Shown here piece by piece: positions 877-33,437 of a DNA stretch of 33,437 bases. Source of the DNA: a virus (Duplodnaviria > Heunggongvirae > Uroviricota > Caudoviricetes). The number at the start of each line of letters is the position of its first letter. The first letter of the stretch is position 1. Made by a program: the position numbers and the translations under genes. The stretch is from IMG/VR virus record IMGVR_UViG_2540341028_000013. One strand, written 5' to 3'. The notes beneath the pieces were generated by a model. The model was not told the DNA's origin, ran no database searches, and saw only the letters and a program-made list of their open reading frames with translations.

Positions 877-1203
877 ATGACTAAAAATACTCGTTTTTCC
901 CCCGAAGTCCGTCAGAGGGCGATTCGTATGGTTCTGGAAAGTCAGGGCGAATATGACTCACAGTGGGCGGCAATTTGTTCCATTGCCCCAAAGATTGGCT
1001 GTACACCGGAGACTCTGCGTGTCTGGGTACGCCAGCATGAGCGGGATACCGGAGGCGGTGATGGCGGGCTCACCACCGCTGAACGTCAGCGTCTGAAAGA
1101 GCTGGAACGTGAAAATCGTGAACTGCGCCGCAGTAACGATATCCTTCGCCAGGCTTCCGCTTATTTTGCGAAGGCGGAGTTCGACCGCCTCTGGAAAAAG
1201 TGA
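877..1203 (+). CDS. IS629 OrfA (transposase DNA-binding subunit)
   Basis: 108 aa, [26 protein letters not shown]...; HTH plus leucine-zipper region typical of IS3-family OrfA; overlaps orfB in -1 frame. Confidence 0.9.
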
Positions 1204-2090
1204 TGCCACTGCTGGATAAGCTGCGTAAGCTGTACGGGGTCGGACCGGTATGCAGTGAACTACATATTGCCCCGTCAACGTATTACCACTGTCAGCAACA
1301 GCGACATCATCCTGATAAACGCAGTGCCCGTGCGCAGCGCGATGACTGGCTGAAGAAAGAGATACTGCGCGTATACGATGGGAATCATCAGGTATACGGT
1401 GTGCGTAAAGTCTGGCGTCAGTTGTTACGGGAAGGTATCAGAGTGGCCAGATGCACTGTGGCACGTCTCATGGCGGTTATGGGACTTGCCGGTGTTCTCC
1501 GGGGTAAAAAGGTCCGTACGACCATCAGCCGGAAAGCCGTTGCCGCAGGCGACCGCGTAAACCGTCAGTTCGTGGCAGAACGACCTGACCAGCTGTGGGT
1601 GGCTGATTTTACTTACGTCAGCACATGGCAGGGCTTCGTCTATGTGGCGTTCATTATTGATGTGTTTGCCGGATACATCGTGGGGTGGCGGGTCTCATCG
1701 TCCATGGAAACGACATTCGTGCTGGATGCTCTGGAGCAGGCGTTATGGGCCCGTCGACCGTCCGGCACGGTCCATCACAGTGATAAAGGTTCTCAGTATG
1801 TATCGCTGGCCTACACACAGCGGCTTAAGGAAGCCGGATTACTGGCATCAACAGGAAGTACAGGCGACTCGTATGACAACGCGATGGCGGAGAGCATCAA
1901 TGGTCTTTACAAAGCGGAGGTAATACACCGTAAGAGCTGGAAAAACCGTGCAGAAGTGGAACTGGCCACACTCACGTGGGTGGACTGGTATAATAATCGA
2001 CGATTGCTGGAAAGGCTGGGCCACATCCCTCCGGCAGAAGCAGAAAAAGCTTATTATGCTTCCATCGGAAACGATGATCTGGCAGCCTGA
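1200..2090 (+). CDS. IS629 OrfB (DDE transposase catalytic subunit)
   Basis: 296 aa with DDE-integrase-like region (WVADFTYV ... [10 protein letters not shown] ... YDNAMAES); 4-bp overlap with orfA as in IS3-family frameshift fusions. Confidence 0.9.
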
Positions 2091-2132
2091 GTTCACAGAT
2101 AAAACACTCTCCAGGAAACCCGGGGCGGTTCA

Positions 2133-2333
2133 GTGACTCCGGCGGGTAAAAACGGAGCCGACGAAGCCACTTACGTTTATCTGAACGGCACGCGACTGCT
2201 TGTGGAACTTCCGTACCAGACCGTACAAGAAATCATTAGCGAAGCTGAAAAGGCACGCCAGGTTAATGGCGATGAACCCTATATCGAAATTATTTGTATG
2301 GATTCAGAAGCTGAAATACAGAAAGCAGATTAA
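2133..2333 (+). CDS. Hypothetical small protein; GTG start immediately after the IS629 end
   Basis: 66-aa ORF from track; no recognisable family; may be the distal part of a gene interrupted by IS629. Confidence 0.25.
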   Translation: MTPAGKNGADEATYVYLNGTRLLVELPYQTVQEIISEAEKARQVNGDEPYIEIICMDSEAEIQKAD

Positions 2334-2341
2334 AGGGCGTT

Positions 2342-2581
2342 GTGATGGGCAAAGAATATAAAACTCTCATTAACAAAGCACTTGAGCGTTTTTATTTTCG
2401 CTTAAGTGCATCAGGCGCTCATGCTGAACGTGCGGCCCGTGACTCATTGACCAGAGCAATCCGAAGTCTGTATGACGTGGCTTTTTACGCTGATGATCTG
2501 GATGCACTTAACGAACTTTCCGAGCTGATCTGTGCCGCAGTGGATTTGCCCCTATATTTCCAGACATCTGTTATCACTTAA
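2342..2581 (+). pseudogene. Hypothetical small ORF whose 3' end runs into the IS2 terminus
   Basis: 79-aa ORF; last 11 residues ([11 protein letters not shown]) are encoded by the IS2 terminal sequence beginning at 2541, so the native C-terminus is replaced. Confidence 0.3.
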
Positions 2582-2805
2582 CCCATTACAAGCCCGCTGC
2601 CGCAGATATTCCCGTGGCGAGTGATAACCCAGCGCACTATGCGGATGCCATTCGTTATAATGCTCGAACGCCTCTGCAAGGTTCTTTGCTGCCGTTAACC
2701 CGTCTGGTTTGGGCATGATACTGATGTAGTCACGCTTTATCGTTTTCACGAAGCTCTCTGCTATTCCGTTACTCTCCGGACTCCGCACCGCCGTGTTCTT
2801 CGGTT
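2541..2805 (-). mobile_element. IS2 fragment (265 bp of the insD-proximal end), truncated by IS911 insertion
   Basis: Near-identical (about 1 mismatch) to 32521-32785 of the IS2 copy at the window end; starts with IS2 terminus TGGATTTGCCCCTATATTTCCAGACATCTG; homology stops exactly where the IS911 left IR begins (2806). Confidence 0.85.
2552..2805 (-). pseudogene. insD: IS2 insD 3' fragment (C-terminal ~85 codons)
   Basis: Translation ...[59 protein letters not shown]... identical to the C-terminus of the full insD at 32532-33437. Confidence 0.85.
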
Positions 2806-2877
2806 TGAAGTGGCACACTGAATTTGGCCACCTGAACAGAGGTGATATGCTCACCTCAGAACAACACAGGTGCTCCA

Positions 2878-4046
<1,169 letters not shown>

Positions 4047-4054
4047 CCACTTCA

Positions 4055-4660
4055 AACCGCAAAAAAGCGAACGTCATGCGCCCGGTGGAGTACCAGAACG
4101 GCGAAGCATTCACTATCCGTAACGTACAGGTTATGCCTGAATCCATTCCGGCTGGCTTTAAGGCACTGGCTGACATGAGTCCGTTTGAATCCCTGCTGAT
4201 TGTGGATTTGGGCGGAACCACGCTGGATGTGGCAAAGGTTCAGGGGCAACTGGCAGGTATCAGCCAGGTGTTTTGCGATCCACACGTGGGCGTTTCTCTG
4301 ATGGCCGATGCCGTACTGTCGGTGATGGCCACTAACGGTATGCGCACCAGTCACCACATCGCCAATACCATTATCGAACATCGCCATGATGAAGCCTGGC
4401 TGCGCCAGCACATCCACAATGACGCGCATTACGCCAGCCTGATGGCGGTAATTCGTGAAAAGGAAGAAACACTGAAACAACGCGTGATCCGCGCGCTGGC
4501 GGTTTTTTCGGGTTACGGGCGGGTGATGGTTGTCGGTGGAGGGGCGGAGATTGTGGCACCCGCTATCCGCGAAGCCTGCGGAGTTAATGCGACTTTCATC
4601 GCGGACGGGGTGCCACAGTTTGCTCTGGTTAATGGGCTGTACGCAATGGACAAGGAGTAA
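4055..4660 (+). pseudogene. parM: parM/stbA 3' fragment (actin-like plasmid segregation ATPase), 5' end removed by IS911
   Basis: Translation from the IS911 boundary: TIRNVQVMPESIPAGFKALADM...LLIVDLGGTTLDVAKV...GVSLMADAV...VMVVGGGAEIV matches the C-terminal ~190 aa of plasmid R1 ParM/StbA as recalled; N-terminal ~130 aa absent. Confidence 0.8.
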
Positions 4661-5039: not shown

Positions 5040-5630
5040 ATGAGCGAAATCAACTATCAGGCATTACGTGAACGTTATTCACCTGTGCCAGTACCGAAAT
5101 GCCCTATTTGCGGCGAGGAAATGTCAATTCAGCGAATATCTGGAGCACAGGTTGTTTATGCCTGCTCCGGTTATGGTGATGATGGAGATTTCAAAATTGG
5201 CCGAACTCTTGCTGACAAACATTATGAAAAATCACGCGTAACAGTGTTGGATGTCGGGGATCCTGAAGTATTGGCGCTACTTGATTGGCTGGAAACCAAA
5301 GACAACCGAATCGCTGAACTGGAAAAAATCGCCACTGACTATGCACTTAAATTCCAGAAAGCACAGGACGCATTAAAGCATGCCGCTTTGCTGCATAGCA
5401 GGACGGCGCAACAAACAAATAATTTTGCAGTATCGCTTCCGGACATAAGCGAATATTTCATTAATGACGTATTTCAGCCCTTGCGATACGAGCGGGATGT
5501 TGAAAGAGCCATCATAAAGGCTGGCGGAAAAGCATTGTGGCAGGAGAAACACGAGGACAGAACGCATCAGTCATGCGATGTAAATTGTGGATGGTTTAGC
5601 CCACTGACGACAGATAAAAATAACACCTGA
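5040..5630 (+). CDS. Hypothetical protein with N-terminal Cys-rich zinc-ribbon-like motif and central coiled coil
   Basis: 196-aa ORF; CPICGEE...YACSGYG motif; coiled-coil segment ALLDWLETKDNRIAELEKIATDYALKFQKAQDALKH; no family recognised. Confidence 0.5.
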   Translation: MSEINYQALRERYSPVPVPKCPICGEEMSIQRISGAQVVYACSGYGDDGDFKIGRTLADKHYEKSRVTVLDVGDPEVLALLDWLETKDNRIAELEKIATDYALKFQKAQDALKHAALLHSRTAQQTNNFAVSLPDISEYFINDVFQPLRYERDVERAIIKAGGKALWQEKHEDRTHQSCDVNCGWFSPLTTDKNNT

Positions 5631-19869: not shown

Positions 19870-20398
19870 TTACTCAGGCTTTTGTGGCCATTCGGGATTT
19901 GCTGTATCCACACGGCTGACCAGAACGCTGTAGCGTTCCCATGACTCCAGTCGTGTGCGTTCCTCATCCATCGCCATATTCAGCCTGACAGCGCGTTCCA
20001 GTGGCTGAATAACGCTTTCAGCTTCAGAAAGCAACGCGACCTTTTGTGATTCGGCCTGTTGTTGCTGTTCGTCTGCTGTATAAATCCGCTTAACCACAGT
20101 TCCGTCCTTAAACATCCACTTCCCTGAATCATCGGCACGACGATTGGCTGTTATATCTGGAATCTCAACGACACTAAAGCCTTCGGGATTAAGCGTTGGG
20201 GCATCTTTGGTTATGGCAACAATAATATTATTTTCGTCGTATACAATCTTTATGGTGTCGTCCTGAAAGTTATTTACTTCCTCATACCAGTTTTTACCGT
20301 CTTCGGACCATAACCAGATAACATCAAAATTCTTTGTTAGCTGATATTGTTCTTTTGTTTTTGGATTTCCGGACTTAATATTTTTTAATATGCTGCAT
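19870..20398 (-). pseudogene. Alternative tail fibre assembly protein (tfa'), frameshifted in codon 6-7
   Basis: ATG at 20398 follows the H' stop by 3 nt, but MQHIKKY* hits a stop; the conserved body ([20 protein letters not shown]...) is in the adjacent frame. Junction is a 6-T run at 20381-20386. Confidence 0.65.
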
Positions 20399-20401
20399 AA
20401 T

Positions 20402-21262
20402 TTACACCTGTGCGACGTTATACCATGTGCCATTGATGTATTTTTGTATTGGTCTGAAGATGGCTTCATCATCGCCATCTACTTCACCAATGATTCTTAA
20501 TCCGGTAATTGCGTGTCCGGCTTTTTCATAACGACCACCACGCGCCATCAATTGAACAACACGCGTACCCAGGCGAACATCTTTTACATAGCGTGAATCA
20601 AAATTCCCCCAGTTGCTGGGCTGTATCTGACCGTTAACAGAAAATATTACCGAGTTATCTGTATTTCGCTGGCTATAGAAATGCCATCCTGCCTCATTGC
20701 CTAACTCTGCAACTACTGGACGGGTTGAAGCACCCCATAAATTAAACGTTGCATTCTTTGTGGAGTTGTTGGAGCTGGATAGCGTGAATTTTTTACCATC
20801 CCCGGCCTGAATATTTTTAAAAGCAATAGCCACTCCATTCTGAAAGCGGAATACACGCTGACTATTAGCATAAACATCCAGAATACCGTCTCCATTCTGT
20901 TTAAATCCGGTGTCATTATCACCAAGAACAATAGAGCTACCACCTAACGCATTCGTCGAACCAACTCCAAGACTGCCATTAATGACAGCATTAACAAGAA
21001 TATTTAGTGCATCCCATTTCAGCGTCATCAGGTCTTTTGTTGTGGTGCTCTGGCGGCTTCTCCATTTGAAATATTCATTGCCGTTGTCGCCTGTTTCAAA
21101 CCACATGTATGAATCAGTGTCACCATCGGCATCATTTTTAAATCCAATCTTCGCCCAGTCAGTATTTCGAATCCAGGCAAGGATTGAGTCATTTTCAAAA
21201 GTAAGCCCACCGGACAAGGTATCGCCATTTTTTTGCACGGCGTTACCAGCCCTGTTTACCGT
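20402..21262 (-). CDS. Alternative tail-fibre C-terminal cassette (H'), silent in this orientation
   Basis: Frame open from the right gix site through ...[24 protein letters not shown]... to ...[18 protein letters not shown]; no start codon of its own upstream (TAA just left of the site); would fuse to H after inversion. Confidence 0.7.
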
Positions 21263-21288
21263 TTCCTGTAAACCGAGGTTTTAAATAA
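21263..21288 (-). repeat. gix/cix-like recombination site (right crossover site)
   Basis: TTCCTGTAAACCGAGGTTTTAAATAA, close to the Gin/Cin/Pin site consensus as recalled (TTCCTGTAAACCGAGGTTTTGGATAA); 55 bp upstream of the invertase start. Confidence 0.7.
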
Positions 21289-21342
21289 TGGCCGTTTCTG
21301 GCCTGCATGGCATGATTTGCGCTTTTGGACGGGAGATTCAGT

Positions 21343-21942
21343 GTGCTGATTGGCTATGTAAGGGTATCAACAAATGACCAGAATACAGACCTGCAACGAA
21401 ACGCTCTTGTTTGTGCAGGATGTGAACAAATATTTGAAGATAAATTAAGCGGGACAAAGACAGACCGACCGGGATTAAAACGCGCTTTAAAGCGCCTTCA
21501 AAAAGGTGACACGCTGGTTGTCTGGAAACTGGATCGCCTCGGGCGAAGCATGAAACATCTGATTTCTCTCGTCGGGGAACTACGGGAGCGAGGGATTAAT
21601 TTTCGCAGTCTGACCGACAGCATAGACACATCTTCTCCAATGGGGCGTTTTTTCTTCCACGTGATGGGTGCCCTGGCTGAAATGGAACGTGAATTAATTG
21701 TTGAACGTACACTGGCCGGGCTGGCGGCAGCGCGCGCAAGGGGGCGCACAGGCGGACGTCGACCGAAGCTGACAAAAGAACAGCATGAGCAAATAGCAAG
21801 GCTAATCAAAAACGGGCACGACAGAAAACAACTGGCAATAATTTACGGCATTGGCACATCGACGATTTATCGTTATCACCCTGTAGGCGATATACAGACT
21901 GAAGAAACAACCGGGCAGACTCAGGAAAATGAAAACCGCTAA
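21343..21942 (+). CDS. pin: Site-specific DNA invertase, serine recombinase of the Pin/Gin/Cin/Hin family
   Basis: GTG start 21343 (RBS GGGAG); (M)LIGYVRVSTNDQNTDLQRNAL...GDTLVVWKLDRLGRSMKHL...GINFRSLTDSIDTSSPMGRFFFHVMGALAEMERELIVERT, near-identical to e14 Pin as recalled, including the catalytic Ser in YVRVSTNDQ. Confidence 0.9.
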   Translation: MLIGYVRVSTNDQNTDLQRNALVCAGCEQIFEDKLSGTKTDRPGLKRALKRLQKGDTLVVWKLDRLGRSMKHLISLVGELRERGINFRSLTDSIDTSSPMGRFFFHVMGALAEMERELIVERTLAGLAAARARGRTGGRRPKLTKEQHEQIARLIKNGHDRKQLAIIYGIGTSTIYRYHPVGDIQTEETTGQTQENENR

Positions 21943-25804: not shown

Positions 25805-25859
25805 CTGTTGTCTCCTTTTCAGTCAGAGGCGACGCACTGCGCCGCCAGCATATTACTTA

Positions 25860-26370
25860 TCAGCCAAGCCCAAGCGCGGAACGGATGCGATCGGGCACAA
25901 TGTCCTTGCCGTCCTTCCGGTAAATGAAGTTCAGCAGGTCAATCTCCCACAACGGGCGATCGTTAACACTCAGCTTGTAGTAGGTGTTTTAATGGCGTAA
26001 GTGTGTGATGTGGCTTCGCCCTGTTTGGCTTCCCCCATATCAATTTCCGTCACACGTCCGCGCATTTCGACTTCATACAGGTCGCTTTCTGCATCGGTGT
26101 AGTATTCACCCGCAAAACGCAGCAGCGTGCCGTCAATCGTGCCGCCATACTTAAGGAACAGCTCACGAACTGCGCCCCCATGACAAAGCTCGCATCAAGC
26201 GCGGAGTCGTCCAGACCGAGATCAATACTTACCGCACCCATCATGCCACCACCCCGGTAGCTGTCGGTTTTGCGCGTCAGCTTAGGCAGAGTGACGGACG
26301 TCACATTACCCACTTCGTTTTCACCATCCACAAACAGCGTAAAAAAGCGAAGATGTTTTGGCACAGCCAT
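25860..26370 (-). pseudogene. FII: P2-like tail tube protein gpFII, interrupted by two single-base homopolymer indels
   Basis: Three consecutive frames carry colinear tube-protein sequence: MAVPKHLRFFTLFVDGENEVGNVTSVTLPKLTRKTDSYRGGGMMGAVSIDLGLDD... / ...AVRELFLKYGGTIDGTLLRFAGEYYTDAESDLYEVEMRGRVTEIDMGEAKQGEATSHTYAIK / NTYYKLSVNDRPLWEIDLLNFIYRKDGKDIVPDRIRSALGLG*. Junctions at a G5 run (about 26176-26180) and an A4 run (about 25986-25989). Confidence 0.75.
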
Positions 26371-27711: not shown

Positions 27712-28821
27712 ATGACCGACACCACCATGCAATTGCTCAGTCAGGGCACGGCCCCCGTGAAAATGCCGGATTTTGATATTCTCTCGGAGGGTAAAACGCT
27801 GTCAGGCGTGGCGGAGCGCCTGATGAGCCTGTAACTGACCGACAACCGGGGATTTGAGGCGGACCAGCTCACCATCACGCTGGATGATGCGGATGGTCAG
27901 TTGCAGCTACCGCCACGGGGCGCGCGTCTGACGGTTCTCATTGGCTGGAAAGGGGAACCGCTGACAGAAAAAGGCACTTACATTGTTGATGAAATCGCTC
28001 ACGAAGGACCGCCGGACAGGCTGACTGTTTCAGCCAGAAGCGCAGATTTTCGGGATGAATTTAACGTTAAACGTGAGGTGTCCTGGCATGATGTGACCGT
28101 TGAGCGTGTGGTATCCGCCATCACTCATCGGTACGGTCTGAAACCGCAAATCAGCGAAATGCTGATGGATATCGAAATCGACCACGCCGACCAGACCGAA
28201 GAAAGCGACATGTCCTTTCTTACGCGCATGGCGGAAATGCTGGGAGCAATCGCCACGGTAAAAAGCGGCAATCTGTTATTCATCATGCCAGGTGGTGGCG
28301 TGAACGCACAGGGGCAGCCGTTGCCCTCGTTCGCCATTACACGCAGCAGCGGCGATCGCCATCAGTTCCGCATTGCTGACCGCGAGGCGTATACGGGGGT
28401 ACGCGCCTACTGGCTTGATCTTAATTACGGGAAAAAGAAAAAAGTCAGCGTGAAACGCCGCAAACCGCCAAAACCCAAAAAGGAGAAAAGCAGCAGTCGG
28501 GAAGGCGACTATATGGAAGGTGCGGAAGGCAACGTGTTTGTGTTACGCAAGACTTATCAGAACGAGCAGGCAGCAAGACGCGCAGCGGCGGCAAAGTGGC
28601 AGCAGCTACAACGCGGAGCCGCATCATTCTCCATCACGCTGGCGCGTGGTCGTGCAGAACTCTATCCCGAAATGCATGGCACAGTGACAGGCTTTAAAAG
28701 CGAGATTGATTATCAGGACTGGACTATTGCAAAAGCCGAGCACACCATTGATAACAGCGGCTTTACCACGCAGCTTGAACTTGAAGCAAAAATCCCGGAA
28801 TGGATAGCAGAAACAGAATAA
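27712..28821 (+). pseudogene. D: P2-like tail protein gpD with in-frame TAA at codon 41 (27832-27834)
   Basis: ATG 27712 (RBS GGGAGGGAG). One frame reads ...SGVAERLMSL-TAA-LTDNRGFEADQLTITLDDADGQLQLPPRGARLTVLIGWKG...WHD... to 28821, colinear with P2 gpD (...SRLVSLTLTDNRGFEADQLDIELNDADGQVGLP...); the stop replaces a single codon. Confidence 0.8.
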
Positions 28822-29069
28822 ATCTCTTAAAAATATTATTTTTGAGATGTGCTTCTACACTGACAGTAAGAACAAAAGATAATGTATCAGCCCACTAGAT
28901 GTCAGAGGTTGGGGCATCAACCAGATGCTAACAATAATACGGATGTTTTTCCCACATGACAGAGGAAGTCAAGTATAATCTTCACAGTCCATCCCGTCCA
29001 AGGGAATATGACTCAATAGTAAAAGTTCCAGTTTAGTTAGTAGACCCACACTTTATAGAAGAGTAATTC

Positions 29070-32000
29070 ATGATTGGACAATTTTTAAGTGCAACAGAGA
29101 TTTTAGCAAAGAACTATGTTCGTAATAAAATGGTTAAAAATCCATTTTATTCGAATTTAAAATGGAATTTTATTGAAAAAAACATCATAAGATTAACATC
29201 CTCACCGGTTAAATCAGTACTTTGCATATCAGCTTTTTCATTTGTACTACTTTATGTTGGATATTTAAACGAATTATTTATAAAAAATAATCTTTTACAT
29301 TATTTCCCGTTTAGGCATTCATTAACCGAATGGCAAACAACCATTTTAAGTGGCCAATTGACAATTATTGGTATTGTATACCCCCTTGTTATAGGTTTAG
29401 TAAGTGTCTTATTCCAAAAAAAGGCAGATAGAAAAATAGCCCAAACTGCTTATCAGCGTTACTCAGGATTCATGCTTGCTGGACTCAGCGGGCTTTTCTT
29501 ATCAGGATTTATACTTCTCAGTGTACTAATTAAAACTGTCTTTGGAAGTTATCTTTATGGTATAGCTTGTCTAATCAGCATATTATGGCTTTTGATAAAC
29601 ATAGTTCTTTCTATTTGGTTCTTTATCGTGAGTCTTGAAATTCTTGATGATGTAAAACGGCAAATAATTATAAAGCGATACATTGCCTTCGAAATAGTAA
29701 TGCCCCATATTTGTAACAAAATATCAGCCAAGCTTAGGTTATACCCTATCTATCAAAAACATAACTATTCAAATTTAGAAATCACGCAAGCCGATTACAA
29801 AGGAGAATACATATCTGTGGCTAGCAGTTATTCTAAGGAAGATGAGTTAAGTTTATATCACCGTCCTTTTCAACTTACTCTTAATCTTATTAATTACCAA
29901 CTAAAAAAGAAGAATCATTTTGCGTCATTTGTCATTGGTGATAATCGTACAAAAGAAACAGAATCCACGGGTAAGATACTTTTTAGCGTTAAAAATATCA
30001 AACCAGACAGCTTATTAATAAAAATACTTAAGCAATGTTTTTATAGGGCTCCGATTAAAGGAGGAGATTTTTCCGTAAGTCTTACAATGCAGGCTATAAC
30101 AGCAGATACGTATATGTATCTGCGGGATTCTGATCTCATTAGTTTTGACAATGCTATCTCTGCATTAATTAATAACTTTAATAATCTCTGCGATTTGTAT
30201 TTTTTTCAAGATGATAATACCAACAATAACTTCTTACTGATCACTACAGAATTATTTGAACGGAGTTTTCAATATGAGTTTTCAGATGAAGTTTATAAAA
30301 TATCAAATAATTCCATGGATAAAATTAATCTTTCTGAAAGATTTTTTGAATTATGTCTTTGGAGCGGAGTGCGTATTATCAATAATAGAAAACATCTTAT
30401 CAGCAATGAACTTTGTATCTATATGGGAATTACTCGTTCACAATGGTCAATATTAACAGAATGGTTCCGAAACAACCAATCACTCTTAAATGCCTCGCTT
30501 CGTTCACGTTATAATCGTATATTAAGAACCTATATCACTGTTTGGGAGCAATATCAAGAAAGCATAAACTTTCGTTTCTGCAATACAGAGAATTCAGATT
30601 TATTTGAATTATTTTGCAAAACGCAACTACAAGAACTTCCATCGATGATTATTGATGCAACACAGACTCGCGATCCTTCTACTATTGATACAGCCGTCGA
30701 TCTTATTAACCGATGGCAGCACTCAATGAATATTGACAGCCATTCGGTAGAAAAATACAGTTACAAAGGCCAGCTTTTTAACCCGGGTTTTTTCATATCC
30801 AAAAAACTAAACTTCAATTCAGACAGAGAGTGGTTCAATATTGCCATCATAAATGCGTTGACTGACATGCGTATATGCACATGTCTTTATCTGACATCAA
30901 GAATCAATACTTCTGACAAACTAATGACACATTACATTAAACTTATTTTAGAGGGTAAACTTATTGACCAAACCGGTGGATATGAAACTCCCACTGAAGA
31001 AATTGATAATGCAAGCCAACTAATCAAGATATTAATTAGAATCTGCCTGTGGACATGGTCTGAAAATATGGAGCACAATGGGTGGATGAATAGTTTAGCA
31101 AGGCGTTTACGTGACTATGATAAAACAGACATGGTGATGGGCAGAGTTTACAGTAATGTTTTTGACTGTGGATTTATTGATATGGAACAATCATGGGTTC
31201 AGCTATTATTAATTTTTTCTAACAAGAACGATAGCGTATCAAAAGAAATAAAAGAAGCAATAGAAAACAACTATATAACATATCGTGAGAAGCAACGACT
31301 CATTGGAGTATTATCAAAAATTTGTAACTCCATCGAATACACTAAAATCAAGCTGACTTTAACATTGGACGATCTCCAAACAAAAAAAGAAAACTTAAGA
31401 AAGTTGCTTCAAGAGCATATTAACATGCTAAAGAAAGATCTTGATATGAGACTTCAGGATGCTGCCATAGATGTACATCGACTAGATAGCACTGCACGTA
31501 AAACATCAGAACATCTTCGTAAACGCATCAAGAAAACGCTCCCTCTTTCACTTTTCAAATCTATTGATTTTAAGCAGGCTAGCGATTGTTTCACAAAACA
31601 TAAGATATCTATTAAGATAGATAAAGAACCGTATGCCGAAGGAATAGAATCCATCCCTTATATCAATGAAGGTGATATTCAAGCAGACTTAATTCTCAAG
31701 GACATCCAGAGAATAATACTTTCAAATTTATTTAGCACTGGCTGTTCGCAACATACCGTAATAGAAGATTTCAATATGTTGATTGATCACATAAAATCAT
31801 CTGCTGACTTGGCTGGCAAACTGGTTCTTGTGATGAGTAAAGAGATCTTTCAGCAATATAATCGTATGCTTTTCGATAATCCCAACCTCAGAGAACTAAT
31901 GAGAAAAAATGATGATGGCTCTATGAACATAACTACTGAATCCGGTACCCGTAAGGTTTACTTCTTACCATTTGTTAATCAACCATTTTCTCTTGTGGTA

Positions 32001-32189
32001 AAGGATAACTACTTCACTAAATTAATTATTAGAGAATATGATAATAATAAGTTAGTAAATGTCACTTCAGAGAATATCAAAAGTGACTCAGATAAATTCA
32101 AGCTAACTCTTAACTATGAGTTGAATATAGTATTTGAAGGAAACGCTGATTTAAAAATAGCTCACTCGCAAAGAGTGACATCAGAATAA
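29070..32189 (+). CDS. Large hypothetical membrane-anchored protein (1039 aa): about four N-terminal TM helices plus an ~850-aa soluble region of unknown function
   Basis: Uninterrupted 3.1-kb ORF in visibly AT-rich DNA; predicted TM segments around residues 50-70, 90-115, 130-155 and 160-190; no nucleotide-binding, nuclease or protease motif recognised by eye. Confidence 0.85.
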   Translation: MIGQFLSATEILAKNYVRNKMVKNPFYSNLKWNFIEKNIIRLTSSPVKSVLCISAFSFVLLYVGYLNELFIKNNLLHYFPFRHSLTEWQTTILSGQLTIIGIVYPLVIGLVSVLFQKKADRKIAQTAYQRYSGFMLAGLSGLFLSGFILLSVLIKTVFGSYLYGIACLISILWLLINIVLSIWFFIVSLEILDDVKRQIIIKRYIAFEIVMPHICNKISAKLRLYPIYQKHNYSNLEITQADYKGEYISVASSYSKEDELSLYHRPFQLTLNLINYQLKKKNHFASFVIGDNRTKETESTGKILFSVKNIKPDSLLIKILKQCFYRAPIKGGDFSVSLTMQAITADTYMYLRDSDLISFDNAISALINNFNNLCDLYFFQDDNTNNNFLLITTELFERSFQYEFSDEVYKISNNSMDKINLSERFFELCLWSGVRIINNRKHLISNELCIYMGITRSQWSILTEWFRNNQSLLNASLRSRYNRILRTYITVWEQYQESINFRFCNTENSDLFELFCKTQLQELPSMIIDATQTRDPSTIDTAVDLINRWQHSMNIDSHSVEKYSYKGQLFNPGFFISKKLNFNSDREWFNIAIINALTDMRICTCLYLTSRINTSDKLMTHYIKLILEGKLIDQTGGYETPTEEIDNASQLIKILIRICLWTWSENMEHNGWMNSLARRLRDYDKTDMVMGRVYSNVFDCGFIDMEQSWVQLLLIFSNKNDSVSKEIKEAIENNYITYREKQRLIGVLSKICNSIEYTKIKLTLTLDDLQTKKENLRKLLQEHINMLKKDLDMRLQDAAIDVHRLDSTARKTSEHLRKRIKKTLPLSLFKSIDFKQASDCFTKHKISIKIDKEPYAEGIESIPYINEGDIQADLILKDIQRIILSNLFSTGCSQHTVIEDFNMLIDHIKSSADLAGKLVLVMSKEIFQQYNRMLFDNPNLRELMRKNDDGSMNITTESGTRKVYFLPFVNQPFSLVVKDNYFTKLIIREYDNNKLVNVTSENIKSDSDKFKLTLNYELNIVFEGNADLKIAHSQRVTSE

Positions 32190-32198
32190 TATCTTTGA

Positions 32199-32228
32199 CG
32201 GCGCTCCTTAGAGTGCCGTTCGTTTATT
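32199..32228 (+). terminator. Rho-independent terminator downstream of the 1039-aa ORF
   Basis: CGGCGCTC-CTTA-GAGTGCCG stem-loop (8 bp with one G-U) followed by TTCGTTTATT, 10 bp after the stop codon. Confidence 0.55.
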
Positions 32229-32324
32229 AACTAATGCTAAAAATCATTATATAGAGAAAGTCATGTTTAAATCTTAGAGAATACAACCTAGAATAGTGTA
32301 AGCACTACAATAAGAGAGGTCGCT

Positions 32325-32520
32325 ATGTTCCGTTGTCCGCTTTGTGGCGCATCTGCCCGTATCCGCACCAGTCGTCCGGAAAATGATTCAAACACCGTGA
32401 GACAAAAGTATTATCAGTGTAACAATCTAGAATGCGGCGTATGTTTCTCAACACTGGAAGCCTTCCACAAATTCACTTCAAAGCACGCCTCCCCCATTCA
32501 CTCATCAGAGGGCATCCCGT
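32325..32520 (+). pseudogene. ogr: ogr (P2 late-gene activator, zinc-finger protein), 3' end disrupted by IS2
   Basis: MFRCPLCGASARIRTSRPENDSNTVRQKYYQCNNLECGVCF resembles P2 Ogr (MFHCPLCQHAAHARTSRYITDTTKERYHQCQNVNCSATF) with the four Cys conserved; the reading frame continues into the IS2 terminus at 32521, giving a foreign C-terminus. Confidence 0.8.
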
Positions 32521-33437
32521 TGGATTTGCCCCTATATTTCCAGACATCTGTTATCACTTAACCCATTACAAGCCCGCTGCCGCAGATATTCCCGTGGCGA
32601 GCGATAACCCAGCGCACTATGCGGATGCCATTCGTTATAATGCTCGAACGCCTCTGCAAGGTTCTTTGCTGCCGTTAACCCGTCTGGTTTGGGCATGATA
32701 CTGATGTAGTCACGCTTTATCGTTTTCACGAAGCTCTCTGCTATTCCGTTACTCTCCGGACTCCGCACCGCCGTGTTCTTCGGTTCAAGTCCCAACATCC
32801 GGGCGAACTGGCGTGTTTCATTAGCCCGGTAGCATGAACCATTATCCGTCAGCCACTCCACTGGAGACGACGGAAGATCGTTGCCGAAGCGGCGTTCCAC
32901 CGCTCCCAGCATGACGTCCTGTACTGTTTCACTGTTGAAGCCGCCGGTAGTCACCGCCCAGTGCAGTGCCTCACGATCACAGCAGTCCAGCGCGAACGTG
33001 ACACGCAGTCTCTCTCCGTTATCACAGCAGAACTCGAACCCGTCAGAGCACCATCGCTGATTGCTTTCTTTCACGGCCACTCTGCCTGTATGTGCCCGTT
33101 TCGATGGCGGTACAGCAGGTTTTCGCTCAAGCAACAGCGCATTCTGGCGCATGATCCGGTAAACACGTTTGGCATTGATCGCAGGCATACCATCAAGTTC
33201 TGCCTGTCTGCGAAGCAGCGCCCATACCCGACGATAACCATACGTGGGCAGCTCTCCGATAACATGGTGTATACGGAGAAGCACATCCGTATCATCAGTG
33301 TGACGACTGCGGCGGCCATCCATCCAGTCATCGGTTCGTCTGAGAATGACGTGCAACTGCGCACGCGACACCCGGAGACAACGGCTGACTAAGCTTACTC
33401 CCCATCCCCGGGCAATAAGGGCGCGTGCGCTATCCAC
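32521..33437 (-). mobile_element. IS2, partial (insD-proximal 917 bp; continues beyond the window edge)
   Basis: Begins with IS2 terminus TGGATTTGCCCCTATATTTCCAGACATCTGTTATCACTTAACCC and encodes full-length insD on the minus strand; matches the IS2 sequence as recalled. Confidence 0.9.
32532..33437 (-). CDS. insD: IS2 transposase InsD (OrfB)
   Basis: 301 aa; the window ends exactly at its GTG start codon; ...[32 protein letters not shown]...WLTDNGSCY... DDE-type catalytic region. Confidence 0.9.

Follow-up and report, generated by a model that had tools for sequence, protein, structure and literature searches.

A recurrent cargo site between D and ogr in P88-like prophages of the P2 family, bounded by inverted-repeat modules

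Anti-phage systems of E. coli have P2-like prophages among their principal carriers, and the hotspots of these prophages have been mined for discovery. Their published cargo sites are gpA–gpQ (the tin/old position) and Z/fun. The latter was reportedly described in 2004 by Nilsson, Karlsson and Haggard-Ljungquist, in Mol Biol Evol 21:1, as a cargo locus with flanking inverted repeats. A 2026 NAR study adds an interval 'downstream of GpL', which is lumped because only seven landmark genes were used. Among the studies consulted, none resolves D–ogr as a separate site of P88-like prophages.

We analyzed a stretch of 33,437 nucleotides from a virus of the Caudoviricetes (IMG/VR record IMGVR_UViG_2540341028_000013), hereafter the window. 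The prophage backbone in the window is a P88-like branch of the P2 family (Peduoviridae; Xuanwuvirus/Gemsvirus), not P2 proper. Its D protein is ~99% identical to that of P88, and its gene order matches P88, 500465-2, and E. coli prophages. The conserved late genes D, ogr, portal, terminase, sheath, and tube are present (Pfam), and the sheath-to-U block lies on the strand opposite to D, as in the P88-type arrangement, in which ogr is followed by hok and att. The D frame terminates with TAA at 28819–28821, and ogr starts at 32325, leaving an interval of 3503 bp between the two genes. The features of the junction are as follows.

27712–28821, plus strand: tail gene D (late control D/baseplate hub), a pseudogene (PF05954, phrog_52)
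28825–28831, no strand assigned: left 7-bp direct repeat TCTTAAA (consensus ACTTAGA), from empty versus filled junctions
28830–28926, plus strand: left inverted-repeat module, a diverged copy with a hairpin-like segment at ~28905–28926 (nhmmer profile)
28854–28979, plus strand: candidate cargo promoter region (consensus scan and sequence reading, which are not evidence of function)
29070–32189, plus strand: cargo gene, encoding a 1039-aa protein (ORF list)
32197–32230, plus strand: terminator-like hairpin (32197–32220) and T-rich tail, 3′ of the cargo gene (sequence scan)
32260–32285, plus strand: putative right inverted-repeat remnant GTCATGTTTAAATCTTAGAGAATACA, ending ...TACA (manual alignment)
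32266–32294, plus strand: putative ogr promoter, TTTAAA / TAGAAT with a 17-bp spacer (scan)
32286–32292, no strand assigned: right 7-bp direct repeat ACCTAGA, from empty versus filled junctions
32325–32520, plus strand: ogr (late-gene activator), C-terminus lost (PF04606, ogr/Delta zinc finger, E 4e-14)
32521–33437, minus strand: IS2 end and orfB, inserted in ogr (IS2 matches; orfB ORF 32532–33437)

A preliminary description of the window had placed ~3.5 kb of foreign-looking DNA, with one gene and a terminator, between D and ogr, and our measurements agree. The GC content is 0.26–0.37 from ~28900 to ~32300, compared with 0.52–0.58 (~54%) in the flanking DNA; a single long ORF of 1039 aa on the plus strand occupies the interval, and the terminator-like hairpin follows it. 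The TATAAT at 28974–28979 had been noted as lacking a convincing −35, and reading of the upstream sequence likewise found only a poor one. A consensus scan yielded a second candidate promoter, TCTACA-18-GATAAT at 28854–28883, which is a weak match. The same description stated that ogr stands close behind D in P2, and this is so: D and ogr are 81 bp apart in P2, and D and B are 66 bp apart in 186. The cassette occupies the D–ogr interval rather than the space separating the tail-fibre assembly gene G from the sheath gene FI. It resembles the morons (Juhala et al. 2000; Cumby et al. 2012, PMC3594210) in being an extra, AT-rich, self-contained unit between genes that are adjacent in relatives, with promoter-like sequences (weak consensus matches only), a terminator-like hairpin, atypical composition, and absence from relatives. 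Morons are defined without boundary repeats, whereas the D–ogr cassettes have conserved inverted-repeat bounds.

The prophage in the window is decaying while its cargo ORF stays intact. Translation against the intact copies of P88 and CP128578 revealed an in-frame stop in D at 27832–27834. From residue 66 the C-terminus of ogr, which in intact relatives has 86 aa, is replaced by read-through into IS2; homology to the intact prophage ends at 32520, and the IS2 end lies at ~32521. FII, D, and ogr are all broken in the window, and the cargo ORF is not. The tin/old (gpA–gpQ) locus of the window holds a ParM partition module disrupted by an IS, and the G-to-FI equivalent in the P88-like lineage contains an invertible tail-fibre segment.

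We compared D–ogr junctions in a viral set of 80 IMG/VR loci, whose D protein is ~99% identical, and in 5426 complete E. coli genomes. Approximately 40 of the 80 viral loci have an empty gap of 40–42 bp, and the remaining loci fall into at least 18 gap length classes of 989–3523 bp. Because the junctions of relatives with ~99% identical D are either empty or hold other cargos, the interval in the window is beyond chance. Clustering gave at least 19 unrelated cargo types at this junction, with GC contents of 0.32–0.43 and in either orientation. Among the E. coli genomes, 1202 (about a fifth) contain the junction, as a contiguous (empty) copy in 720 and split in ~480 (~40%). In ~40–50% of P88-like elements, D–ogr holds a low-GC cassette of 1–3.5 kb with one or two genes. 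Cargos of relatives include Thoeris (ThsA, E 6e-203; ThsB, E 3e-70), Shedu (SduA, E 1e-208), a PifA-like system (E 1e-64), and bSEFIR (E 2e-44); the majority of the cargo types have no PADLOC assignment. D–ogr is therein like tin/old (Rousset et al. 2022, PMC9122126; Vassallo et al. 2022), another variable locus between conserved phage genes where known and unknown defence systems turn over rapidly in near-identical phages. Tin/old differs in position, and no inverted-repeat modules have been reported there.

In the P2 and 186 lineages the junction is short. The D–ogr gap is 80–82 bp in 79 of 79 P2-type loci and 66–78 bp in 41 of 41 186-type loci, so that neither group has variable genes at this position, and it is at most 111 bp in 70 of 80 species-representative loci. 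D–ogr is a true recurrent cargo hotspot, and only in the P88-like lineage (Xuanwuvirus/Gemsvirus). The preliminary description had offered two readings, and each survives in part. A third cargo site of P2-like prophages is borne out as to recurrence (at least 19 cargos; ~40% of junctions split) but is confined to the P88-like lineage, with P2 and 186 empty; a lineage-specific acquisition is right in restricting the site to one lineage and wrong in implying a one-off event, as many cargos occupy it. It is not the case that most P2-like phages carry genes at D–ogr, the P2-type and 186-type junctions all being short, nor is the ORF a conserved core gene, being present in five of the 5426 complete E. 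coli genomes and in Shigella.

Cargos also occur at D–ogr junctions of Providencia and Rahnella. No inverted-repeat modules were detected around them, and they are probably independent events.

Conserved flanks occur across unrelated D–ogr cargos. At one end of a cassette stands a left module of ~100 bp and at the other a right module of ~60–100 bp, the second repeating the first in inverted orientation (ends TGTA...TACA); the consensus module ends, TGTAYTAGCTCAGA..., show this inverted relation. A left-module profile matches 38 of 41 cassettes, and in the window it matches at 28834–28922 (nhmmer, E 7.9e-5). A right-module profile matches 37 of 41 other cassettes and has no match in the window, where manual alignment of the putative remnant with the right-module consensus GTCAGTTGGAATCTGAGCTAGTACA gives ~19 of 26 identities. 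The scars that the preliminary description had suggested looking for exist, as ~100-bp inverted-repeat modules (the right one in the window being putative) and a decayed 7-bp direct repeat.

The left-module profile also matches P2 directly 3′ of gene G (E 1.9e-15) and the segment annotated as 'left inverted repeat' in P2-EC46 (E 1.2e-19). Judged by this sequence similarity, the D–ogr modules and the inverted repeats that annotations place on either side of the P2 Z-region are homologous, which makes D–ogr a site mechanistically tied to the classical locus rather than an independent one. The Z/fun locus (AJ512677–AJ512685) shares with D–ogr the homologous left and right ~100-bp inverted-repeat modules, low-GC, one- or two-gene cargos that occur in both orientations, and some cargo types, such as DUF3800. 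The two differ in that Z/fun is the G-to-FI position of P2-like coliphages whereas the present hotspot is the D-to-ogr position of the P88-like lineage, and in that D–ogr, unlike Z/fun, has an empty form, where a 7-bp sequence present twice in filled sites occurs once. A further P2-like prophage of E. coli has the modules at its Z/fun site, and they are also found in CP4-type islands and the island L387, and around cargo adjoining tfa in Salmonella lambdoid prophages, there with a perfect 7-bp repeat, ATTAATG. A right-module motif scan of viral contigs gave 51 matches, approximately half of them apparently due to chance (a rough expectation was of similar order), and the informative ones were recognized solely through extended similarity.

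Structural and enzymatic readings of the flanks were also considered. A long-range RNA stem (RNase III-type) between the flanks was rejected, as complementarity was 0.387 within and 0.381 between cassettes (p 0.26); no covariation links the two modules of a cassette, which speaks against active mobility. The flanks have no Rfam match at gathering threshold or E ≤ 1. A covarying hairpin in the left module was likewise discarded: RNAalifold gave no consensus structure, and variation in the GTCCGC/GCGGAC stem consists mainly of mismatches. The modules are unlike gix and hix sequences, and cargo orientation is independent of module orientation, so invertase sites were set aside.

Comparison of empty and filled junctions identified the 7-bp sequence as ACTTAGA, with one copy in empty sites and two in filled ones. 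The D–ogr repeats have decayed to 3–6 matches out of 7; six of seven positions agree in 10 of 19 cargo types, and all seven in none. This decay counts against active mobility of the cassettes, as do three further observations. No D–ogr cassette contains a recombinase or transposase gene, there is no clear duplication at the P2-EC46 Z site, and searches of E. coli genomes and viral contigs turned up no unoccupied version of the Salmonella lambdoid target site. Like non-autonomous, MITE-like transposable elements with cargo and like integron cassettes, the D–ogr cassettes have terminal inverted repeats ending in TG..CA, a short putative duplication of the target, no internal mobility gene, and the same bounds around many cargos; one island with multiple inner modules interspersed among its genes adds to this likeness. 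They depart from those systems in their decayed direct repeats, in their as yet hypothetical mobility, and in having repeats on both sides of the cargo, unlike attC.

It is possible, though in our estimate somewhat doubtful, that the turnover of cargos is ordinary homologous recombination via D and ogr arms and that the modules are regulatory, serving the late operon as insulator or terminator and ogr as promoter, rather than sites of recombination or transposition. D and ogr are 95–99% identical across elements with different cargos, and the last codons and stop codon of D differ by cassette type, which suggests crossovers within D. In the putative ogr promoter the −35 (TTTAAA) comes from the right module, 17 bp from a −10 (TAGAAT) that belongs to the backbone and direct repeat; other cassettes at the same place have TTGGAA-17-TAGAAT. 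The lack of a mobility gene and the decay of the direct repeats fit such an account as well. However, the same modules occur at loci with unlike flanks (P2 G-to-FI, the Salmonella lambdoid tfa region, CP4-type islands, and L387), for which neither homologous D and ogr arms nor an ogr promoter function can account. Moreover, their inverted arrangement, TG..CA ends, and internal subrepeats recall the ends of transposons, and the target sequence is single in empty and double in filled D–ogr sites.

The cargo protein starts with an N-terminal membrane part (four to five hydrophobic, transmembrane helices within residues 45–196), is helical in its middle region, and ends in a domain at residues ~760–1039. 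This C-terminal domain is predicted to adopt the HK97 capsid fold, as in major capsid proteins and encapsulins, and soluble helical and capsid-fold domains together are predicted to make up ~800 residues. The protein has no Pfam, PADLOC, or PHROG matches, a PDB profile search was negative, and a match to SU10_MCP in two members of the family is not significant (E 0.16). It differs from HK97-fold proteins outside virions (encapsulins, satellite capsid proteins) in combining the predicted HK97 domain with a membrane anchor and a ~500-residue helical region and in having no sequence similarity to capsid proteins; shell formation would be conjectural. An identical protein occurs on 183 contigs, mainly of Shigella. 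A dN/dS of ~0.45, calculated over 31 differences, points only weakly to constraint.

By guilt by association, the cargo is probably a defence gene. Its homologues on plasmids and islands adjoin RES, AAA-ATPase, PIN_12, and DUF3800 genes, and it resides in a defence-rich locus, sharing its junction with Thoeris, Shedu, PifA-like, and bSEFIR cargos. Cargos at phage hotspots are not all defensive.

That the cargo works as a transporter, or as a different lysogenic-conversion or virulence factor directed at the host envelope rather than at phages, is in our judgment unlikely. RefSeq names the protein an MFS transporter, it has an N-terminal membrane domain, and it is retained in Shigella, a pathogen; morons of phages commonly encode envelope or virulence functions (PMC3573123). 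The MFS assignment itself was rejected, as none of 37 family members has a Pfam MFS match, or any transporter match, and four to five hydrophobic helices contrast with the 12 of MFS proteins. The ~800 residues modeled as soluble helical and capsid-fold domains, the four recognized defence systems at the same junction, and the RES, PIN, DUF3800, and AAA-ATPase neighbors of the homologues also speak against an envelope role. A single lineage-specific acquisition by one prophage, without general meaning for the site, would suit the rarity of the 1039-aa cargo (5 of 5426 E. coli genomes, otherwise mostly Shigella) and the lack of any insert in P2 and 186 lineages, but it is highly improbable, being already refuted by at least 19 unrelated cargos at the exact same junction in near-identical backbones and by the ~40% of junction-bearing E. 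coli genomes that are split there.

We consider it likely that the interval is one cassette of a lineage-specific cargo hotspot in P88-like prophages of the P2 family. Under this reading, an element bounded by inverted repeats would originally have inserted at D–ogr with a 7-bp duplication, and cargos would later have been swapped along with the repeat modules, through crossovers falling either inside the modules or inside the conserved flanks formed by D and ogr. Every cassette may act as a moron, with its own promoter and a terminator that would stop read-through from the late operon, and its right module would give ogr back a −35. The cargo in the window would most likely be an anti-phage or inter-element conflict gene, kept as the prophage decays; as a membrane-anchored protein, it may engage phage capsid assembly with its capsid-fold C-terminal domain and use its membrane domain as effector.

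A bolder combination, which we hold to be improbable as a whole, would join a trans-mobilized, integron- or MITE-like cassette system of ~100-bp modules with a cargo that represents a new, capsid-fold class of defence. In such a system, defence genes would travel singly between P2-like phages (at two sites), lambdoid phages, and the CP4-type islands of Enterobacterales. The capsid proteins of an invading phage would be sensed by, or would assemble jointly with, an exapted, membrane-tethered HK97 domain, which would thereby trigger a membrane effector.

For the P2 family, the boundary repeats link D–ogr to Z/fun, to lambdoid prophages, and to chromosomal islands. These shared boundaries reopen a question reportedly raised in 2004, namely how such cassettes move, and the cargo of the window, a membrane protein with a predicted capsid-fold domain, is an unusual candidate for experiments.

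The window is a prophage of the P2 family; its backbone belongs to the P88-like branch (Xuanwuvirus/Gemsvirus), not to P2 proper. Members of this branch encode the sheath-to-U block and D on opposite strands, and ogr is followed by hok/gef and then by the attachment site. The preliminary description had reported about 3.5 kb of foreign-looking DNA between D and ogr and had stated that ogr closely follows D in P2; both statements are correct, as the following features and the gaps of P2 and 186 indicate.

28819-28821, TAA stop of gene D (PF05954, phrog_52)
29070-32189 (+), single long ORF of the interval, 1039 aa (the cargo)
32197-32220, terminator-like hairpin
32325, start of the Ogr/Delta zinc-finger ORF (PF04606)

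The interval measures 3503 bp, with a GC content of 26-37% versus 52-58% in both flanks. The D-to-ogr gap of P2 is 81 bp and houses the ogr promoter, and the D-to-B gap of 186 is 66 bp. The TATAAT hexamer described at 28974-28979 is present, and its -35 element is poor.

We measured the gap between the D stop codon and the ogr start codon in 80 viral contigs encoding a D protein ~99% identical to that of P88. The gap was 40-42 bp in ~40 contigs; 38 were filled by inserts of 989-3523 bp in at least 18 length classes, and in the remainder the junction runs past the contig end. Filled junctions from contigs and annotated genomes form 19 unrelated sequence clusters, all of low GC (0.32-0.43), each with one or two genes in either orientation. 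PADLOC recognized four known systems among the cargos, namely Thoeris (ThsA, ThsB), Shedu (SduA), PifA-like and bacterial SEFIR; among the remainder are PIN, DUF3800 and ParA-like proteins, along with several that had no match. When the empty P88 junction was searched against 5426 complete E. coli genomes, 1202 matched and 720 held a contiguous copy; the other matched genomes are split at the junction, so that ~40% are filled. A sequence labelled Vagococcus sp. (L251) carries a P88-like D 99% identical to E. coli D and a junction filled by 1492 bp; its label probably reflects contamination or mislabelling.

P2-type and 186-type loci have small gaps: 80-82 bp at 79 of 79 P2-type loci and 66-78 bp at 41 of 41 186-type loci. 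In a set of 80 species-representative genomes, whose D homologues range from 48 to 99% identity, 70 have a gap of at most 111 bp. The ten exceptions are an E. coli-like locus (1492 bp), a Providencia locus (1356 bp), six Rahnella loci (360-772 bp), a Symbiopectobacterium locus (357 bp) and one locus whose overlapping blast-derived coordinates give a computed gap of -4 bp. A search for boundary modules around the inserts in Providencia and Rahnella was negative. The hotspot therefore exists, but it is specific to one lineage. The preliminary description had offered a third cargo site or a lineage-specific acquisition: the site is recurrent, with 19 cargo clusters, but it is not general to P2-like phages. 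Of the two refutations named there, neither is borne out: most representatives carry no variable genes between D and ogr, and the window's ORF, found in only 5 of the 5426 E. coli genomes, is not a conserved core gene.

Comparison of empty and filled junctions defines the cassette ends. The empty site reads TGA-GCAACTTAGAATAGCGGCAGCACCACGTTAAGGGAGGTCGCT-ATG. Filled sites start with GCAACTTAGA, followed by TGTATTAG(C/T)TCAGAC..., and finish with ...GTCAGTTGGAATCTGAGCTAGTACA, followed by ACTTAGAATAGCGG... The heptamer ACTTAGA is therefore single in empty sites and present on both sides in filled ones. Within one cassette, the two copies share three to six of their seven positions; six are shared in 10 of 19 types, and all seven in none. 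Inside them, cassettes with unrelated cargos have in common ~100 nt at the left end and 60-100 nt at the right end, at ~70-80% identity. These left and right modules are inverted copies of each other, and each module end bears two ACTGTCAG-type subrepeats and a hairpin-like GTCCGC...GCGGAC segment. The modules showed no left-right covariation within a cassette, no consensus RNA structure and no Rfam match. The preliminary description had suggested a search for short direct repeats or recombination scars at the insert edges of the window. On the left, the module was matched by profile at 28834-28922 (E 7.9e-5). The right module has diverged beyond what the profile recognizes but can be aligned by eye at 32260-32285. 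The 7-bp repeat was found as decayed copies.

The same modules occur at other loci. A distant blastn search of a phage collection matched the G-to-FI interval in P2 and in many Peduovirus genomes, as well as the GenBank "Z-region" entries of P2-EC31, EC46, EC48 and EC67 (Nilsson, Karlsson and Haggard-Ljungquist, 2004), which label the corresponding stretches "left inverted repeat" and "right inverted repeat". Judged by this similarity, the modules are already on record as the Z-region inverted repeats. A profile built mainly from D-ogr cassettes matched P2 directly after gene G (E 1.9e-15) and, inverted, just upstream of the pF activator site (E 7.6e-6), thus bracketing fun(Z). Scanning viral contigs for the exact motif located the right module, with the same ...GTACA end, joined to different sequence in Salmonella prophages with a Gifsy-2-like tfa, where modules bracket 0.75-kb or 3.2-kb cargos next to tfa, flanked by a perfect 7-bp repeat, ATTAATG. 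In E. coli genomes, the inner, hairpin-containing part of the module was also found at Z/fun of a further P2-like prophage, whose cargo there is DUF3800, and at the borders of variable regions in CP4-type islands, next to a gene for a YeeP-like GTPase. A metagenomic island with a cargo homologue (L387) has three intergenic copies.

L384 4160-7407, Salmonella tfa-side cargo (also in L339, L355, L352, L377, L379 and L383)
L393 ~4501-4549 and L395 ~4501-4541, inner module copies in CP4-type islands
L387 2168-2211, 3170-3205 and 14058-14096, inner module copies

Cargo turnover with D and ogr as homologous arms cannot account for such a distribution, which extends to Z/fun, Salmonella tfa, CP4-type islands and L387. 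A boundary element that is, or once was, mobile would be expected to show this pattern. No cassette contains a recombinase or transposase gene, and no autonomous relative turned up in the scans of viral contigs and E. coli genomes.

The D-ogr junction holds a bounded cassette with empty and filled alleles and with boundaries common to other cargo sites. An element bounded by inverted repeats probably inserted once, with a 7-bp duplication, and its cargo, modules included, was probably exchanged later by recombination. Such exchange would account for the decayed repeats, for modules more diverged than D and ogr, and for the last D codons, which co-vary with cassette type. The cassette interrupts D-ogr at what is, in empty elements, a 42-bp junction without a terminator. 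Its right module contributes TTGGAA (in the window, TTTAAA), which lies upstream of the backbone TAGAAT at a distance of 17 bp; the pair forms a putative promoter of ogr's own.

The cargo protein matched nothing in Pfam, PADLOC, PHROG or PDB sequences. Its database name, "MFS transporter", is unsupported, as only four to five hydrophobic helices are present (residues 45-196). The full-length AlphaFold model (pLDDT 81) combines a membrane domain with a helical middle part and a C-terminus rich in beta structure; residues 760-1039 modeled separately gave pLDDT 88 and pTM 0.81. The family spans ~240 clusters at 50% identity (1040-1130 aa) in Enterobacterales, and the exact protein occurs on 183 contigs, mostly named Shigella. 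Between alleles, dN/dS is ~0.45, from 31 differences. Relatives lie on colicin-type plasmids and islands, with RES, AAA-ATPase, PIN_12 and DUF3800 genes next to them. Two of these kinds, PIN and DUF3800, also occur as D-ogr cargos in their own right, and PIN_12 or DUF3800 genes adjoin homologues or paralogues of the 1039-aa protein at three loci.

L389 6840-7919, Pantoea plasmid
L334 10139-11272, E. coli plasmid
L387 14408-15123, metagenomic island

PIN_12, DUF3800 and cargo-family genes seem to travel in the same neighborhoods. Judged by its context, the cargo probably has a defensive role. A literature search found no description of a defense protein of such architecture. More speculatively, the predicted capsid-fold domain might engage phage capsid assembly.

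The window's copy of the prophage is decaying. An in-frame stop in D (27832-27834), where P88 and E. coli VG38-53E1 have a sense codon, makes the gene a pseudogene here. The tail tube gene FII (25855-26370, -) is frameshifted after ~residue 65, compared with an intact 170-aa copy in an E. coli genome (L001). IS2 (32521-33437) interrupts ogr near its 3′ end, from ~32521, and replaces about the last 21 residues; hok/gef and the attachment site, 3′ of ogr in relatives, were not seen within the window. At the classical gpA-gpQ cargo locus (877-4660), a ParM-type partition gene is truncated by two IS3-family elements.

877-2090 and ~2842-4046, IS3-family transposase ORFs
5040-5630, Ead/Ea22-like gene
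21325-21942, resolvase-type DNA invertase of the tail-fibre segment at the Z/fun-equivalent position

The equivalent of the P2 Z/fun position (19870-21942) is occupied by an invertible tail-fibre segment, which encodes on its minus strand an alternative C-terminus for the fibre together with an assembly gene, and also includes the invertase gene listed above. PGAP annotates D in several E. coli genomes (L001, L002, L003, L004) as a late-starting 266-aa "VgrG/Pvc8 family" protein and adds a spurious partial ORF on the opposite strand; translation of the L001 gene gave a full open reading frame of ~370 aa.

Rousset et al. 2022 (PMC9122126) limited their analysis to the gpA-gpQ locus, to which Vassallo et al. 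2022 added fun; a 2013 paper gave "at least two" moron positions in P2-like phages, and a 2026 NAR study with seven landmark genes gave a hotspot "downstream of GpL", which would lump Z/fun and D-ogr. The P88-like D-ogr site, its empty and filled alleles and its common boundary repeats are not explicitly described in the P2-like cargo-site literature examined. Sites of this kind, however, are already known. D-ogr is a genuine third cargo site, lineage-specific and mechanistically related to Z/fun, and the main points of note are boundary repeats across element types and a cargo that pairs a membrane domain with a predicted capsid-fold domain.
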